A stretch of DNA of 48,459 bases, the filler included, from Catajapyx aquilonaris (taxonomy: Eukaryota), in NCBI GenBank assembly GCA_000934665.2. It is 2 parts of 2 records of this genome, joined end to end, with 100 filler letters (N's around TTAATTAATTAA, not from the genome) between each part and the next. Parts side by side here need not be neighbours in the genome. Positions count along the whole stretch, not along the records: positions 24,275 to 48,459 come from KZ539371.1; 1 more part is not named here. One strand, 5' to 3'. The notes beneath the pieces are model-generated. The model worked only from the letters and a program-made list of their open reading frames with translations. It searched no databases and was not told the DNA's origin. Of this stretch, positions 10,701-44,841 are shown one piece after another (within the stretch, counting starts at the first letter, position 1; each line of letters opens with the position of its first letter). Made by a program: the position numbers and the translations under genes.

Positions 10701-12059
10701 TTTTCGTGTTATTGAAAAGCTGGCGTCTCATAATTTGTGCCAGATTTTAAGGATAAGCGGATAATTTTTGCCAGATGGTGCTGAACCTGAAAGTTCTGTC
10801 ATTTCAACTTTATTATAGAAGCAGTTTTCTGCCTGGCTCACCAGATTAGCGACCCTGAATTAATAAAACTATTGTTTGCAGGTGATCTATTAAAGTGGGA
10901 AGGGTATGGTATTGCGTAGCTATGGAGCTCGGCTTTGTTTTTGCCTCTTTCTGTGTTTTTGAAATGTAATAAACTTTTGGCTTCAATAAAATGATATTTG
11001 CTTGAAGATTTTCGCAAAGAAAGGGTAAACAACAGCTCTGTCAGTTTTGCAAGTAATGGCAAGTACACAATACGACAACGTAAGAGACACGATCTTATTC
11101 GATTTTTAATGAGTTTCAAGGTTTCTGTAGAAGGCCTGATATCCCTCTCAGTTTAATGAGACAATTCCTACCCACCTCCTTTTATGGTTAGAACTGTCTT
11201 ATTAAGCTGAGAGGGTATAATAACTTATTATGTAGTATCAGATTGCAACTATATCAGTATTATTTACCTGTTTTGCTGTTTTTTGTAACTTATACTTCAC
11301 TATGGTCTACTAATTATGAATATTTTGTCCAAGTGAGAGTGTAATGAAAGAAAACAAAGCAAAACAACACACACTGACTTTGTTCCCATTGTAATTGTGA
11401 ACTTGTTTATGCAACAGTTGTACTGTAAAGCAGAATTGCAAAGTAGCCTGCCTGTATAAATATATTGCCACTCGTAGTAACTTGACCATATTATGTTAAA
11501 ACTGGTTTATGAATGATTTCGCACAAAATGGAGTCATCTATGATGTTCCAATCGGCAGTTTTATTGCACTATCAGCTTTGAATGTAGATCTAACTTAGCA
11601 CGTTTGTTAGTAACATAAAGATAAAGGGAAGTCAGAAATAAGTGCTTCTGAATGATATGACATCCTGTTAACTGACTTGACAGTCTGAAGGCATAAGAGT
11701 GGGTCATTATGGAAGTCTTTTAACATTCCGTTTCGGCCCGGCCCTCCCTCAGTGAGGTATTATTACCATCAGAATTGAACAATACATTTCTTGGACTCAT
11801 GCAAGCTGTTAACAAGATAGTTCATTAATTTTTCAAGTGCACCCCTGATATTCGTGATTACGAGTAATCATAAGGGTCCCTGAAAAGTGCTACCTGATTA
11901 CGCCAGTAGTTAATTATTATTGGAAAGATGATTACACATGTACAACCTTTACTTCTCCATATCAAGTATAACAATAGGCAGCAAAAGTAATTCCCCTTTG
12001 GAAGGCACTTGACACGTGGAGGTGCAACAATGTCACAAAACTATTGTTTGTGTTCACAG

Positions 12060-14173
12060 GTCCACGTGAGGTTCTCCGCTACTACCTACTGTCCCTGGCA
12101 GCAGCGGACCTACTGGCGGGGGTACTGCTCATCCCGCTGTCCGTCTATCCTGCCCTCCGGCAACAATGGGTCTACGGCGACGCGGTGTGCCGAGCAGCAG
12201 GATACGGAATGGCATCACTTTGGGTCATTTCTGTCTATACCTTCATGTGGATCGGGGTGGACAGGTACAGTATAGAGCAATGCGGTTTTATAACAGTCAC
12301 TTTTACCAATAATGCCATATTGCTTTGGAAGTATGTTTGTGACTCACAGGAAAACAATGCAAAATGCACCTTATATCCTGCATAGTGCACTGTAACCATC
12401 AACATGGCACCTAAGGTGTTTATGCTCATGTTTCCGTCAGCAGTTCGAAAAAGCTGTCTTCTGTGCTTGAACAGGTACGTGGCTGTCACGAAACCAATGC
12501 GGTACGAGACAGAACAGACTCCTACCAGGTGTCAATGCTGGGTGGCCTTCACCTGGGTGACGGCCATGCTGTTATGTCTGCCACCAATTCTCGGCCTGTC
12601 CAGGCCTCGCTTTGAGAGAGACGTCCTTGTCTGCTTTCCCGACTGGGGAGGAATGGCCGCCTACTCTGCTACTCTTGCCGCTCTTGTACTCGGACCCAGG
12701 TACACCTACACACTTGTCAGTTTATATCATGTCAAAGTTGATAAACAGAACATGATTTCCCTTTGTAAACATGCACTCTTGCCGATCGTATGGCAAGCCA
12801 ACTGCTTCCCCCTTCTACCGTATTAATGAAGAAATGATAAGAGAAGTAATTATCGTTTACTTTCAGCTTAATAACGTCTTCGTACACTCTGGGTTACATA
12901 TTTGTAACCTTGAAAAAAATGCGCAGTGGCGAGGCTAATGTGGACCGGGAATTTGCAGCGGCTTTGAGCGAGCAGTTGGCCGGTAAAGGTCACATATTGG
13001 CCACTGCTCTCACCGTGGTCTTCTGGGCGTCTTGGACGCCATACGCTGCTGTCCGAGCCTACGAACAGGTTATTATCATTTTCCACATTATTTCTTCGAT
13101 TCCAGATGTAATTTACTTGTATTTTCTGAATTCATTTCATGGCTGTTGTATGAAAGTTCTCTATCTGGTTATGCCTTAGCTATTTCAGAATATCTCAAGT
13201 AGTGATATGGAAGTACTATTATGATAGTAGGTCAGGTATTACTACATTGATTATCATGAATATTATAAACTTCTGAATATGAAATCAACAAAAGTACTGG
13301 CTTTGTTGATATCGATTCTCCTTGGAACACAATGTAGGATAATCCGGTTAGGAGATAATAGATATCCCTTTTCTTTAGTAGTAACTTAGTAACAAGTAGT
13401 AACTTCTGATGATGGCTCATATTATTTTCATGCAGGATCACCAGAATACTTCACATTTTAGTAATTTCTTATATTTCCTGTGGTCCCATAATCGATCCAA
13501 TATTAACAAATGAAAATTGTTATAAAATTAGGTTTAGCCATTACTTCAAGCTCAGTAATTGTTTATTCTTATACGTATTCCTTATTCATCTTATGCATCT
13601 TGTATTGTAGTGGCGCGTAGTCTTGTAGTGGCGCGGTGGTGTATGGGTTAGCGCCACAGCCGCGGTGGTGTATGGGTTAGCGCCACAGCCTTCCACCTCT
13701 AAGGCCCAGAGCCCGATCCCCGGATCAGACAGAAGTTTGGTAATTAAAGGAGGATCCCCTAACAGACCAAATGCCTATCACAAGAGCATTATCTTGGAAC
13801 TCAAACCAAACTGCATGCAAAAACAGTGTAACCTTTGGCAATCTTCCCTAATCTCCATTTCCAAACTCCTGAACCAGTGTCACGAACCAACAAAACCGTA
13901 CCTGTAGCATGTGAAGTGAAGTCAAGATGGAAATCATAATCTTGAGCGTATAGTGTTTGACACCATGTTTGTATCCCTCAGGTGTTCGGTTGGCGCCTTC
14001 AGATTCCGTTTCTTCACTTCGGTCTGTTTTGGCTGGGAGTCCTGAACTGCTTCTGGAAGGCCCTTCTGTATGCCGCTCTGAGTCCTTCCTTCCGGCTGGG
14101 TCTCCGTCTCTTCTGCATGTCTCTTTGCTGTCGCGCCAAAGACCGACAGGCACAGCTCATTTTGGAGGAATAA
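12060..14173 (+). CDS. DopEcR: Dopamine/ecdysteroid receptor (DopEcR; GPR52/GPR21-like) class A GPCR, 5'-partial. Exons 12060-12264, 12475-12699, 12867-13068, 13982-14173
   Basis: Four exons with GT-AG sites and compatible phases splice to ~274 aa: GPREVLRYYLLSLAAADLLAG...[33 protein letters not shown]...DWGGMAAYSATLAALVLGPSLI...KMRSGEANVDREFAAALSEQL...WLGVLNCFWKALL...LSPSFRLGLRLFCMSLCCRAKDRQAQLILEE*. These blocks match the insect DopEcR sequence as recalled. No TM1 exon was found in the window. Confidence 0.92.
13630..13740 (+). mobile_element. tRNA-derived SINE head in the last DopEcR intron, with a duplicated A-box
   Basis: 29-bp unit cgcggtggtgtatgggttagcgccacagc repeated in tandem (13632-13660, 13661-13689), followed by a degenerate B-box (gagcccgatccc). 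Confidence 0.6.
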
Positions 14174-24174: not shown

Positions 24175-24274
24175 NNNNNNNNNNNNNNNNNNNNNNNNNN
24201 NNNNNNNNNNNNNNNNNNTTAATTAATTAANNNNNNNNNNNNNNNNNNNNNNNNNNNNNNNNNNNNNNNNNNNN
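24175..24274. other. Assembly gap with artificial spacer (44 N + TTAATTAATTAA + 44 N)
   Basis: Symmetric 100-bp construct; the 12-mer puts stop codons in all six frames. Confidence 0.9.
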
Positions 24275-28487: not shown

Positions 28488-28582
28488 NNNNNNNNNNNNN
28501 NNNNNNNNNNNNNNNNNNNNNNNNNNNNNNNNNNNNNNNNNNNNNNNNNNNNNNNNNNNNNNNNNNNNNNNNNNNNNNNNNN
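28488..28582. other. Assembly gap (N run) within a poly-C tract
   Basis: 95 N flanked by C runs. Confidence 0.98.
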
Positions 28583-33925: not shown

Positions 33926-34890
33926 CAGGGGTAGCAATATTACGCGTTTTTACGCGGGGAACGCGTTTTTTACGGTTTTTTCCCCGAGGTCTCGGAAAAA
34001 TGGGAAATTTTGTTTTTGTTTTTTATCTTGCCTTTTTTTAGTTCAAAGTTGCTACGCATGTTAAAAAAACCTTATGCATTCTTTAAATCTGCATATTTTT
34101 ATTAGCGATACGCTGACACATATGAATTATTCGTATGCAGTTATGCTCATATTAAATGCTTTTTTGTCCTCAAAATAATGTCACTGTTACTGCCCGTCTG
34201 CCACATTACAAAAGTCACTCTCTCACTCCTGGGTGTCACTGTCACAACTATAGAGTCCTCCTCGTCACCATTTAAGTCAGCTTGGGCTGAAGAATTATTG
34301 GGAGTTGCTCTTGCAGTGCTGAAGGTGCCACCAGCTTCTCTACCCTCTCCACTTTCAGCCGATTACGATTTTTTTTGTGTGTGGACCCAATAGTGGACCA
34401 GTTGCGTTCACATACTGCTGAACTGGGGGGAAGGCACGAAATTCGTGCTGCAATTGAAGTCAGTGTCTGATTTGTGCATAATATAATCCTTGCCACCATG
34501 AACTTGGAGCTGAGTGGTGTGCCGATTTCCACAGGGCCTTGACCACAGTCTAGTATGGATTCGGTATTCACCCAATGCCTTTCCATCATCAATGTTAAAA
34601 TAACTGCACTGTCCAGAAGGCACTCACAGTATCATTATCACGGAGGCTTTTACCTTCATATCGAGGATCCAACAGGTTAGCAGCAAAGTGGATGGGCTTG
34701 CAAGTAAATGAGTTTCGCTCCTTGACACACATTTTAACCTTCTCCTGCTCTTGTGGGGTTAGGTGTGTGGTACCCAGGTGTTCTTCCAATGTTTTGTCAA
34801 TTTGCACAAAAACTTCAGAAACATCAGAGAGTAATGCAGAATCAGACACAAGGCGAGAAATTCCTCTGGAAATTGGACGAAGTACCTCTT
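33926..34890 (-). mobile_element. hAT transposon 3' remnant (transposase C-terminal and dimerisation domain, frameshifted)
   Basis: Peptides PIHFAANLLDPRYEG and IAARISCLPPSSAVCERNWSTIGSTHKKNRNRLKVERVEKLV are hAT C-terminal motifs; CAGGGGT terminus with acgcgttttt subterminal repeats at 33926. Confidence 0.88.
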
Positions 34891-36634: not shown

Positions 36635-37174
36635 GGTGCTGCAATTTAAAATTCCTTCCACAACAACAACAACAACAAAAACAACAATAATGAACGATAA
36701 TGAAACATAAAATCTGGCAATATGCAATTTAACTTAATGTAATTACTTTTTCTGTAGCTGAACAATATAATTTGGCATATAATTTTAAATTCGGGATAAA
36801 TTTATTTAAATTGGTAAAAAATGGGTAGGTGCTGCCAGCTCTCGGGCGACGGGCACAACTGGCTTTTGGTCGGATCGGCGGATCGGGTCGGATAGCAATA
36901 GAGGAAGGATATACTCTAACAAGTAACAACCGTGGGATAGAGTCACGATAGAGTCGACAGACAACGAACTACGCAGGAGAAGTGACTTTTGTTTGGCTTC
37001 ATCCCGTGCGTCATCTATCAGTCTGTCTTCTGCATGTCTATTACTATGATCATTTACTCTTGCTATGATGGTTGGCTCTGCTTTTTATAGTTGTTGTGCC
37101 ATAGGGCACCTGCCATAGGCTTTCTGCAGGTGGACAACTGTATTCACAGGCAGCGTTGACTGGAAGCTCAGGCT

Positions 37175-38697
37175 ATGGCTCAGGGGGCTCAGGTGACTAT
37201 AATAACGCATGTCGATACATGTTGGATCCGTTTACACCGGTTTACACCCAAGATATTGCAATTTAAATGTGGCATTTAAATTTCAGACAATGGATTTAGT
37301 GTCACCATACCGTGTGCCTCACCTGATGTACTATTTGGGCCAAGGAGATGAAGTCACATGTCGACCCTCTCTGCTTGGATGTTTCTCGGTGAACGGCAGC
37401 AGACAGTTTCAACAGGACATGTCGCAGTTAAAATACTATGATTACAACAAGGTGCCGGCGAAGCCGCTTGACTTGCATGAAGGCATAGACGCTGCGATTA
37501 AAAAGGACGCCACTGATGTCAAGAAAGAAGGGCTTCAGCATATTCTGCGCTGGATTCTGGCTAACAGGCATCATTTCAGCCGTGCTGATGGATGCCAGAG
37601 GTGAGCCATTACTTTTAAAACATTGACAACATTGGGTATAATATAATACCTGATGATTTACTAATCGAAATATGTCAGATTTCTGCCACAGTTTGTGTGC
37701 TACCGAGGACTGCTGACAGCCGTAATGTGCACGCCATACGAGCAACAAGAGGGATGGAAGATCTGCGCATCAATGTTCCTCGGCACGATTTACTTGTTTG
37801 CCATGGACACGGAGCAGAAGAAAAAGTCGAGACAGCATGACACCGAGAGGATGAAGGCCATGCAGGCTTGAGGATTTAAGTTTGAGCAGTACATTTTCGC
37901 AGGTGTGTCTCATCTGCAAGTTTCATAATCGCCGTCAACATGAACTGATTACGTTTTTCAGATGATGCTAACAGCACGCCCAAGACGAATGTACCTGTAA
38001 ACGAGAATGAGGAGTTCTCTTGCGTTTTTACCATGAAAATAGCTGCTTCTTCCGTCTTGTTTGCGGCTGAGATGGATGGTATTGAGTCAGGAGAAACTCT
38101 GATGGAATCAGATGTCGTGAACAAGTATAGCACAAAGTTTGTGGAAGCCAAGACTACCCGAGTTATTGAAACTAGGGGACATGACATGACATACCGCCGG
38201 TGAGGCAGACTTCTCTGACTGTTAGCAAGCCAATAATATTACACTCTTTCAACAGGTACAAGATTATGAAGTGGTGGGCGCAGTGCACCACTGTTGGTGT
38301 AACGAAGATTGTACGTGGCCTACGTGATGACCATGGCCTGGTCCATGAAGTTGGTGAGGTGGATGTGGCAGATCTTCCAAACCAAGGAAAGGTCCATATT
38401 TATCTTGCTTTGCAAACATTCTTATTCCATACACTTGTCCAATGGTAAAAATTTTATTGCCATTGTTACTTTCAGGACTTCTGGGATCCGTCAGTGTGTA
38501 TGAATTTTATGAACGAGTTCCTCCAGTATGTGAAGTCAGTTGTGACAACCGACAGCCCGAAGGTGCACTACTGCTTCAGTTGGAAGCCCAACAGACCAAT
38601 CATCACAGTGGAGCTATATGACGAGACTAACGATCTTGTCCTGCCCGAGTGGTACACCAATGCTGTAACCACTGGGGAAAGTTCTCATCATCGTTGA
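37175..38697 (+). pseudogene. DXO: DXO/Dom3Z/Rai1-family decapping exoribonuclease gene, full length but with one in-frame TGA (37869-37871). Exons 37175-37192 (tentative), 37287-37600, 37679-37902, 37962-38199, 38256-38391, 38476-38697
   Basis: GT-AG introns with matching phases give 383 codons containing DXO motifs: RPSLLGCFS..DMSQLKYY, LQHILRWIL, FVCYRGLLT..CTPYEQQEGW, *GFKFEQY, LFAAEMDG, FVEAKT, KIMKWWAQ, GLRDDHG, WDPSVCMNF, LPEWY. Confidence 0.92.
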
Positions 38698-39703
38698 GTT
38701 TGATGATTCTGATTCAGTATTTTTTTAAAAATGTTCTGTAATTTTATTCAGTTTTAACCCAGTTTACATAAGAGACATTATACAGCAATTTTTCCACTTT
38801 TCTTGAAAATGACCTGTGTTACCAGTAAATTAATCAGCAGCGCACCACAGGCATTGGATTATTGCCTCACTGGAGCTGATAGGATGCATGTAGGCCTAAT
38901 TAAGAATCTGGATATAAATCGATATGAATGAAGACGTCTTGATATAAAAATTGATATAGAGTGGGGGCTCTTAGCGAGATGAAGGGGACAAGTTGGACAA
39001 AAGCACCAAACTTTGCGTGGAGTTTTGTTTGGTCCTATGCTAATAGTTTTTGGTAGGATCCACGGGATCAGTGCACATGGGTCCTGTCACGTGACATTTT
39101 TTTAGAAATCGCCCTGCGCAAAGGGGGATTCCGCGTCAAAGGGGCCGCCCTTGGCCACACAACCTTCTCCGATTTTGGCCATATGCGGGTATGTTGTAGT
39201 GCCCACATACTGGTTTATGCAACCGAGTTTGTTTATGTGTACCATGCGTGGTTTCGAAACTACAGTGTGTCACATGTGCCCATTTTCTAGCATTTTGACC
39301 CATATATGCTGTTACTTGGGAGGGCCACAAGATCAGGTTTAATCATAAATTTAATGTGTGCATTTGAACGGTATTTTCGCTTTCTATGAGATGGTCATAC
39401 ATATGCACAAGAAAATCCAAAATTTAAATTCAAAATGGTTCCCAAAATTTTAATATTTTGATATTACTCATTAATCGACCCCTACTACTGATTTTGAATG
39501 GCGCTTCAAATAATACGGGAAATGTTTGCTTGAGATTGCTTCCAAATCTGGAGATGAGAAATTCGATATTTGCCAAATATCAAAAGCATTTTGTGGGCCA
39601 AATGTAGAAATCCCGTAAATTGGCAACCAAATTTCACAAAATAATATTGTTGCTCTAAAAATAAATAATGGCCTACCACATACATATGATATTGCGAGAA
39701 AGC

Positions 39704-40008
39704 AAACCGAAGCACGTTGGTGTAGTGGATATGGAGTCCGCCTGCTAATCGGGAGGTCCTGGGTTTGAATCCCGGGGCAGGTGACCCTGACCGTGGTTTT
39801 CTGTGGTTTCCCATGGTCCCCCCAGGATAATTCCGGGGTCGTTTCCGTAAAACTAGGCCACAGCCGGTTCCTTCCGTCCCTATCCTATCCCACAAAGCTA
39901 AGTAAAATGAAAGCAAAGAGTTCCAGTCAAAACAAAATTGGGATGAACTCCCCCCCTAAAGAGCCGCCGGCTGATAACAGGTATGAATTATTATAATATT
40001 ATTATTAT
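39704..40008 (+). mobile_element. tRNA-derived SINE (Talua/Lm1-like core) with (ATT)n tail and 14-bp TSD
   Basis: A-box TGGTGTAGTGG, B-box GGTTTGAATCCC, core ggttttctgtggtttccc...aggccacagccggttccttcc; TSD tattgcgagaaagc at 39690-39703 and 40009-40022. Confidence 0.9.
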
Positions 40009-41944: not shown

Positions 41945-43219
41945 TTGTTATCTTAGAGCTTTCTGGTACACAACATCAGTTGGTCGTCTTTCTACCATGT
42001 GCCAATAAAAAGAGATTGTTGCTTTCCCCCACTCTGGAGAATGCAACATAAAGCTTTCCATGGGAGAAGCAGGGTGCAGTTAAGTGAACTCCTGCCACCA
42101 GAAAGGACTGTCCCTGGGCTTTGTTAATCAACATTACAAAGCATAGTTTGAGAGGAAACTGAAGTCGCTTGAACTGATATGGGACATCTGTGGGAATCAT
42201 GGGGATTCTGGGAATGAAGACATCCTCATATTTGGCACAGCCAGTCATGATAGTAGCTTCAATGGCATGGGGCAGGAGCTGCTTGACACAAAGTCCAGTG
42301 CCATTGCACAATCTGGGTGGGTCCATATTTCTGAGCAGGATGTTGGGAGAGCCAATCCTGAGAACCAAGTTGTGAGGTGGCAATCCTGGTGGTTGCAGTG
42401 AGTTTAGGAACTAATTAAGTCGGATAATACACTGCTTGATCAATAGCATGTCTTTGCTCAATGCATTCTGTTCAGATCGATGTGGCAAAGGAAGTCCAGA
42501 TTTCAAATCTGTCAGGGATTTGCCCACCATGGTCATGACCTTATCTTCAAGGTAAATGAGGGCCTGGTTGTGCATCGCAAACGTATAGTTGAGGTGAAGT
42601 GTAGGATTTTCAAGCCTATGCCTGTGTAGAATATCATTCTTCCGTCATGAAGTCCCGGAAATAATTCCAATTCCCTTTGGATTCCCTTTGGAATGAGCAG
42701 GAAGTGATGATGATGGCGAAAGGATTCCTGAGGCCTGAAGAAGATGTGGCAGCAGCAGCTTGCAAATTGGCATCCCAAAATGAGGGGTATGGTGGAAAAA
42801 CATGATCACTGGCAAAAGTGTAATTTTTCAGGAGAGCGAATTGAAGTTTGTATTTTCTTAACAAATCATAGGGAATGCTGGTTGTGATCTAGTCCGTGTG
42901 GCCGTCTCATGCATAATACATGAACTTGGAGTACCTATACCAAACTATTTGTCATGTCTTATACATAGTTGCTAGGTGTTCAGGTAAAAAATGACAAAAA
43001 TGTCCGTTATCATATTTTTCCACCACACCCCTCAAATGACATCCCCTTCCAGTAGCCCCCTTCTTTGAAACATGACGGTTGGCGTTACAGGCGGGAGAGG
43101 TTGAAGGTGTAGGAAACGGACCACAGATGGCAGGCAAATGACGGTTGGCAAGGTTGGCATTACAGGCGGACAGACTGACAGATCACAAATGTCTTTATTT
43201 ATATAGAAGAAGATATAGA
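41945..43219 (-). mobile_element. Helitron remnant with PIF1-type helicase C-terminal fragment (about 41950-42410)
   Basis: [37 protein letters not shown]...FIPRIPMIP...FKRLQFP...INKAQGQS...[15 protein letters not shown]; 5' end A|TCTATATC..TATATAAAA..tctgtcagtctgtcc at 43219 on the minus strand. Confidence 0.9.
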
Positions 43220-44120: not shown

Positions 44121-44841
44121 ATGATTGGATCAATGAACAACACTAAGACCTTTTTGAATGTGTTTAATTTGGGCAGTAGTAATGTTGAATATTATTTAAA
44201 GGATATCTGCAAAATCCAGTCAGATGAAACAAATACTCCGAGAACCACTGGAGACTTTCATGTGGCTGGTGCAACTTCAAATTATTTGTGCGTGGGCTTG
44301 AAAAAGACTGTTACCGTACACCAAGGGAAAAAAACAGCAAACAAGAAGTCAGGATCAGTCCACACTCAAGTGAAGCAGAAGTTGACTAGTTATGAAAGAC
44401 TCAGATCTCATGGTGGACCTTACCCATGCAGGGATTGTGATAAGAGGTATGTTACAAAGAGTGGGTTTACAAGCACATTACAGGACTATCCATCTTGGTG
44501 TGAGGCCTTACTCATGTGACATGTGTGACAAGAAATACTTGCAAGTCTCACATGGTGGTTCACAGGAGGAGTCACACAGGAGAAAGGCCATTCCAGTGCG
44601 AATGGTGTGAAAAATGTTTTTCTTCAAGTTCTCATTACCAGTTTACCACCTTCATGTTCGGATTCACAAGGGAGTGAAACCATTTCCTTGCACCATTTGT
44701 GGTAAAAGATTGGATCAGTCAACACACGTACACCAGCACATGTTAATTCACTCAGGTGAGAAGCCTTTTGAATGTAGCGCTTGTGGGAAAAATTTCAACC
44801 TATAAGGTAACATGCAGAGCCATATGATATTAATGCATTAG
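44121..44841 (+). pseudogene. C2H2 zinc-finger (Kruppel-type) pseudogene, five fingers
   Basis: [50 protein letters not shown] and [14 protein letters not shown] are spread over three frames, with an in-frame TAA (44803-44805) inside the last finger. Confidence 0.88.

Follow-up and report, generated by a model that had tools for sequence, protein, structure and literature searches.

Enzymes of the DXO/Rai1 family strip faulty or non-canonical 5' caps from RNA and then degrade the RNA in the 5'-3' direction. Hallmarks of the family besides the RAI1 domain are a PD-(D/E)XK-like fold and an activity in decapping, deNADding, or 5'-3' exonuclease digestion. For mouse DXO (Dom3Z; PDB 4j7l, 5uli, 6aix), one report describes Arg132/Gly133, Glu192, Glu234, Glu253/Lys255, and Gln280 as residues of metal and phosphate binding (PMC7293010). 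Drosophila Cutoff, a member of the same protein family, is presented as a piRNA-pathway paralog of Rai1 that arose by lineage-restricted duplication (PMC11571810), and two accounts describe it as non-catalytic (PMC11571810, PMC7293010). Nonsense alleles are no rarity in wild genomes; about 36 per haploid genotype are reported for wild D. melanogaster (PMC5888714).

The gene considered here, from Catajapyx aquilonaris, belongs to the DXO/Rai1 family and spans 37175-38697 on the plus strand of the window (the whole stretch of 48,459 nucleotides that was analysed). Its six exons give a spliced reading frame of 1152 nt, or 383 codons, and are separated by introns of 94, 78, 59, 56, and 84 bp, all five of which have GT..AG borders. 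Third-position GC is 0.56 in the gene vs 0.35 in its introns. The only in-frame stops of the spliced frame are a TGA at codon 175 and the end codon, and the 383 codons contain no lesion besides this TGA. The parts of the gene are as follows.

37175-37192 (+): putative exon 1, 6 codons, ATG..CAG followed by gt; without homology support
37287-37600 (+): exon 2, N-terminal part of the RAI1 domain (PF08652 E 4.6e-11, profile 2-67), with splice sites
37679-37902 (+): exon 3 (PF08652 E 7.6e-21, profile 76-144), aligned to mouse DXO; contains CYRG (Arg132/Gly133 equivalents), TPYE, the internal TGA, and GFKFEQ (Glu192 equivalent)
37869-37871 (+): internal stop TGA, codon 175, at a conserved Trp column; next base G
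37962-38199 (+): exon 4 (PF08652 E 7.3e-10, profile 160-221); contains AEMD (Glu234 equivalent and invariant Asp) and VEAK (Glu253/Lys255 equivalents)
38256-38391 (+): exon 5 (PF08652 E 3.4e-12, profile 226-268); contains KWWAQ (Gln280 equivalent), then CTTVG
38476-38697 (+): exon 6, C-terminal part (PF08652 E 3.5e-07, profile 275-332); natural stop TGA-G at 38695-38697

All five large exons matched the Pfam RAI1 profile (PF08652) above the gathering score and in order, covering profile positions 2-332 of 333, with 30-75 bits per exon against a cut-off of 26.8. Exon 3 also matched the solved mouse DXO chains with an E value of 2.9e-13. The N-terminus of the gene is poorly conserved; similarity to the closest homolog begins only at residue 32, and exon 2 used as a query against longer proteins gave no match. 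Two other start codons are equally plausible: the ATG at 37290 and, without splicing, the ATG at 37209.

Several other features were seen in the window. A rhodopsin-type GPCR gene lies about 25 kb upstream of the DXO gene, where two adjacent open frames at 11978-12823 (+) match the rhodopsin-family 7TM domain (PF00001, E 9e-14 and 3.5e-13). A hAT transposase has left part of its C-terminal dimerisation domain at 34275-34631 (-) (PF05699, E 3e-07). A Pif1 helicase 2B domain match at 41979-42410 (-) (PF21530, E 6e-13) sits in a region, 39.5-43.6 kb, with many short frames on the minus strand; it may be a Helitron-like element in decay. A C2H2 zinc-finger match at 44386-44607 (+) (PF13465) scored 29 bits against a curated cut-off of 40. 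The assembly is a draft, with scaffold gaps marked by runs of N that total 185 (24175-24274, 26065, 27546, 28488-28582). A tblastn search with six DXOs found this locus only, and thus no second DXO copy in the 48-kb window.

To place the stop among relatives, the spliced product, with X at the stop, was aligned to 63 homologs of at least 300 aa taken from 77 proteins, the 14 shorter ones being omitted. The GFKFEQ, AEMD, VEAK, and KWWAQ motifs are all present in the gene product, and the active-site equivalents R120, G121, E180, E222, D224, E247, K249, and Q274 are kept, each in a column with no or almost no variation among the 63 homologs; D224 is the Asp of E-h-D. The family residue is kept at 37 of the 40 columns that are at least 90% conserved in the same alignment, the misses being the TGA, C275, and T276. 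Judged by these residues, the gene is predicted to be a catalytically complete member of the DXO/Rai1 family. It has the RAI1 domain end to end and the active-site equivalents in common with mouse DXO, from which it differs in having Tyr for Trp131, Phe for Tyr189, Ala for the Leu of E-L-K, C-T-T for S-F-L after Gln280, and the premature stop. Identity to vertebrate DXO homologs is about 32-38%.

The closest homolog, P0001, is a protein of 380 aa encoded by a public contig of 1400 nt, which probably represents a transcript, and is 62% identical to the gene product over 346 aa. Two motifs of the window gene are unusual, CTTVG for the usual S-F-L-V-G and EAK for E-L-K; both are real in the alignment, and S275C, L277T, and L248A are its departures from the family consensus. 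P0001 reads CFTVG and EAK, shares C275, and has the usual Phe at the position of T276; F276T is the sole private change of the window gene in these two motifs. Unlike the window gene, P0001 also has an intact frame and a Trp at the TGA column. Because EAK and the Cys after KWWAQ are common to this intact relative, they appear to be lineage traits and not decay. T276 adjoins the Gln280 equivalent (codons 275-277 are at 38276-38284), at a position where 57 of the 63 homologs and P0001 have Phe; it needs two base changes and would therefore be older than a single recent slip.

At the column of the internal TGA, the 63 homologs have W in 57, Y in 2, and S, G, M, and a gap in 1 each (W in 57 of 62 residues). 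By eye, seven of the 14 omitted short proteins (P0002-P0006, P0009, P0010) have Y there, and mouse DXO has Met, in contrast to the Trp of most invertebrates. No stop was visible at this column in any of the 63 homologs, and P0001 reads MQSWGFKFEQ across the site. A single TGG-to-TGA transition would explain the codon-175 stop. Splicing around it was rejected, as the site lacks a GT donor and the alignment with homologs runs across it ungapped. These comparisons bear out the original prediction of a six-exon gene (introns of 56-94 bp, intact splice sites and frames) with the catalytic motifs FEQ, EMD, EAK, and WWAQ and a single TGA where insect relatives usually have Trp; the odd motifs that it singled out, CTTVG and EAK, are real but mostly common to P0001.

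We used DNA contigs to evaluate the stop in the source DNA. Four DNA runs from one sample and one study cover the stretch; they are probably the assembly's own source and so are not independent of the assembly. Contigs were examined from three runs of that sample (X1, X2, X3) and from X5, a run of another sample, which yielded none for this stretch. Contigs lose variants, and the depths quoted here are contig means. Contigs over 37841-38164 had 0 letters other than those of the assembly in X1 (depth 32.6) and in X3 (depth 26). The reading frame is interrupted at codon 175 of 383 by a TGA that is present in DNA contigs. With a depth of 26-33 in contigs of three runs, this TGA is neither an assembly slip nor random error.

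The same contigs revealed that the sample contains the gene in two versions. Each run had, over 37679-37829, two contigs of similar depth that differ at 8 sites, and a further difference was seen just downstream.

37709, 37721, 37733, 37736, 37739, 37769, 37772, 37799 (+): differences between versions, all 8 at synonymous third positions
37834 (+): A/G difference, Gln to Arg; A in X1 and X2, G in X3

Over the 64 codons of 37679-37870, the versions thus differ by 8 synonymous changes and 1 non-synonymous change, and exon-3 third-position divergence is about 12% (8/64 codons). Since the 8 exon-3 differences are all synonymous, the gene appears to have been under constraint until recently. The stop is likewise predicted to be young relative to the split of the two versions, because free drift through much of their divergence predicts several non-synonymous differences. 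Across 37100-38800 the versions share short identical islands at 37281-37317, 37527-37561, 37652-37708, and 38135-38181. The two versions in this interval imply either that heterozygosity is very high or that a recent duplication was collapsed, and the assembly is probably a mosaic of the two.

We rebuilt the contig layout from the depth table at k=31, with a contig at 37800-37870 (X1, X3) or 37800-37882 (X2) and four linking contigs. This layout matches every depth bin up to 38630 to within 0.07 and gives the following values for each run.

Run X1: linking-contig depth 69-88; TGA-contig share of local depth 0.43; reference-arm share of the exon-3 bubble 0.52
Run X2: linking-contig depth 35-41; TGA-contig share of local depth 0.67; reference-arm share of the exon-3 bubble 0.67
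Run X3: linking-contig depth 55-73; TGA-contig share of local depth 0.41; reference-arm share of the exon-3 bubble 0.43

The depth shares of the TGA contigs track the reference-arm shares of the exon-3 bubble across X1-X3. In X1 and X3 the last position of the common contig is 37870 and the first of the TGA arm is 37841 (37871 minus 30), so the break between 37870 and 37871 has the same bubble geometry as the proven difference at 37709. A variant at 37840 was rejected as the cause of this break, since the alternative contig of X3 would then show a difference 31 from its end and none is listed. Contig geometry and depth lead us to infer a second version of about equal depth whose letter differs from the assembly at 37871, where it would probably make the codon TGG. 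The alternative arm over 37841-38164 was not recovered among contigs of X1-X3 at 90% likeness or more; with intron 3 counted in, its divergence probably exceeds 10%, or filtering may have removed it.

Run X2 differs in that its break falls between 37882 and 37883 and its contig at 37853-38164 has one unplaced difference. This difference must lie near a contig end, and 37871 falls in one of the two possible stretches. All three runs together require three haplotypes, or two loci of which one is heterozygous. One model that would fit X1-X3 combines a diverged version with a reference-like background in which 37871 varies between A and G.

The codon-175 stop most likely marks a young null allele or gene copy of an ordinary kind. 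The assembled version would carry a real, young TGG-to-TGA nonsense change, and its translation would end before every catalytic motif from GFKFEQ on, which would make it a null version. The second version, at similar depth, would part from it exactly at 37871, as in X1 and X3; the stop would then belong to a single allele, or to a single member of a pair of close copies, and the assembler would by chance have picked the version that has it. We consider it probable that the nonsense change is young and confined in this way, with a second version present in the sample. That second version would be an allele rather than a duplicate, which would make the locus comparable to the segregating nonsense alleles described in one account of wild Drosophila melanogaster, likewise single-substitution stops in otherwise intact genes (PMC5888714); a difference is that the allelic status of the stop in the window is deduced from contig geometry alone. 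The original prediction had listed a very recent inactivation and a segregating null among its options and had called for the stop to be checked in reads. Done on contigs, that check found a real TGA (depth 26-33, three runs), and these two options fit best, given the synonymous-only differences between the exon-3 arms and the break at 37871.

Against an allele, third-position divergence at 8/64 codons is high, and the second version may instead be a paralog; the TGA copy could then be a very young pseudogene that has reached fixation. Under this explanation all chromosomes of the species would have the stop at the locus, with the second version being a separate paralog or the branching having another cause. 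The solid TGA in contigs of three runs agrees with this, and the third-position divergence, along with the lack of other arms at 90% likeness or more, is more paralog-like than allele-like. The locus also lies among the transposon remnants noted above (hAT at 34275-34631, Pif1 2B at 41979-42410), and the product has T276 in place of a Phe kept in 57 of the 63 homologs. A quick maximum-likelihood (ML) tree of 106 rows was built from the window gene and 105 proteins of 320-470 aa among P0001-P0130 (P0069 was left out). The end branch in this tree is longer for the window gene than for P0001 (0.49 vs 0.27), which would suit a pseudogene, but relative-rate counts of private changes are not different (25 vs 22, median over 62 outgroups), with 11 vs 6 in conserved columns, and we see in these sequences no clear sign of rate acceleration in the window gene. 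Further evidence against fixation is that the 383 codons hold no second lesion, that 37 of 40 highly conserved columns are kept, that the exon-3 versions differ by 1 non-synonymous vs 8 synonymous changes, and that the odd geometry of X2 hints at variation within the reference-like version. A fixed pseudogene is an unlikely alternative to a stop confined to one allele or copy.

An improbable explanation is a lineage-specific paralog of changed function, Cutoff-like or with an altered substrate range, that is now decaying; the original prediction had favored a paralog with altered specificity. The window gene and P0001 form a starred pair in the ML tree (support 100) on a long stem of 0.88, apart from named arthropod DXOs, and an exhaustive HMMER search with P0001 over representative proteins, which found 1861 family members at E<=0.001, had none above 44% identity to P0001. 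The departures S275C, L277T, and L248A from the family consensus would also suit such a paralog. However, the backbone beneath the pair, which lies among animal DXOs, is unresolved (support 79), so the position of the pair says little and would neither show nor exclude a paralog. The odd motifs are common to the intact P0001 and the active site is complete, and the proposal of altered specificity is not supported. In its active site the gene is not Cutoff-like: Cutoff, as described, has lost its activity (PMC11571810, PMC7293010), whereas the window gene keeps every catalytic residue. In the tree, the window gene does not group with the only Drosophila sequence included, which is either Rai1 or Cutoff.

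There is only a slim chance that the gene is functional with its UGA decoded as Trp, by near-cognate readthrough or by A-to-I editing to UGG. Ir75a of Drosophila sechellia is reportedly such a 'pseudo-pseudogene', an intact-looking gene with one premature stop. The window gene likewise has one premature stop, is otherwise intact with signs of constraint, and has it at a Trp column, Trp being the residue that either mechanism would insert; unlike Ir75a, it shows no sign of readthrough. ADARs disfavour an A that follows a G, as at this TGA. The stop is not conserved, with Trp in P0001 and 56 other homologs. The local RNA fold at the stop is unremarkable (z = 0.26), no inverted repeat involving 37855-37890 was found among 25 of 26 pairs, and a search for a SECIS gave no Rfam match at the gathering score over the window, nor at E<=1 over 36800-40000. 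That the DNA graph branches at precisely this position suggests variation in the DNA. Lastly, the internal stop is in the context UGA-G, as is the gene's own terminator, and UGAG signals are reported as strong terminators in mammalian assays (PMC5829715). The original prediction had itself rated readthrough as less likely, and the shared UGA-G context leaves it unsupported. Two further kinds of recoding were rejected: a genome-wide code with TGA as Trp, given 7 TGG codons vs 1 internal TGA and a gene that ends in TGA, and selenocysteine at the TGA, given that there is no SECIS and that the aligned residue is Trp and not Cys.

The chance is slimmer still for a fuller form of this explanation, in which UGA would be decoded as Trp in vivo by tissue-specific readthrough or A-to-I editing, this RNA-surveillance enzyme would be made conditionally from a seemingly dead gene, and two deeply diverged versions would be maintained in the population. 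Hardly credible is a sequencing or assembly error over a true TGG, one of the options first proposed: a single transition would yield TGA and the draft assembly has N runs, but the independently built X1 and X3 contigs match the assembly across the site at depths that random errors do not reach.

If a young stop confined to one allele or copy is the true explanation, the fitting annotation for this locus is a DXO gene that carries an allele- or copy-specific nonsense variant, and not a gene that is lost or recoded. The wider interest of the stop would rise only if the unlikely recoding were true. The divergent DXO lineage that the gene shares with P0001, marked by EAK and the Cys after KWWAQ, would be a minor addition to the known diversity of the family.
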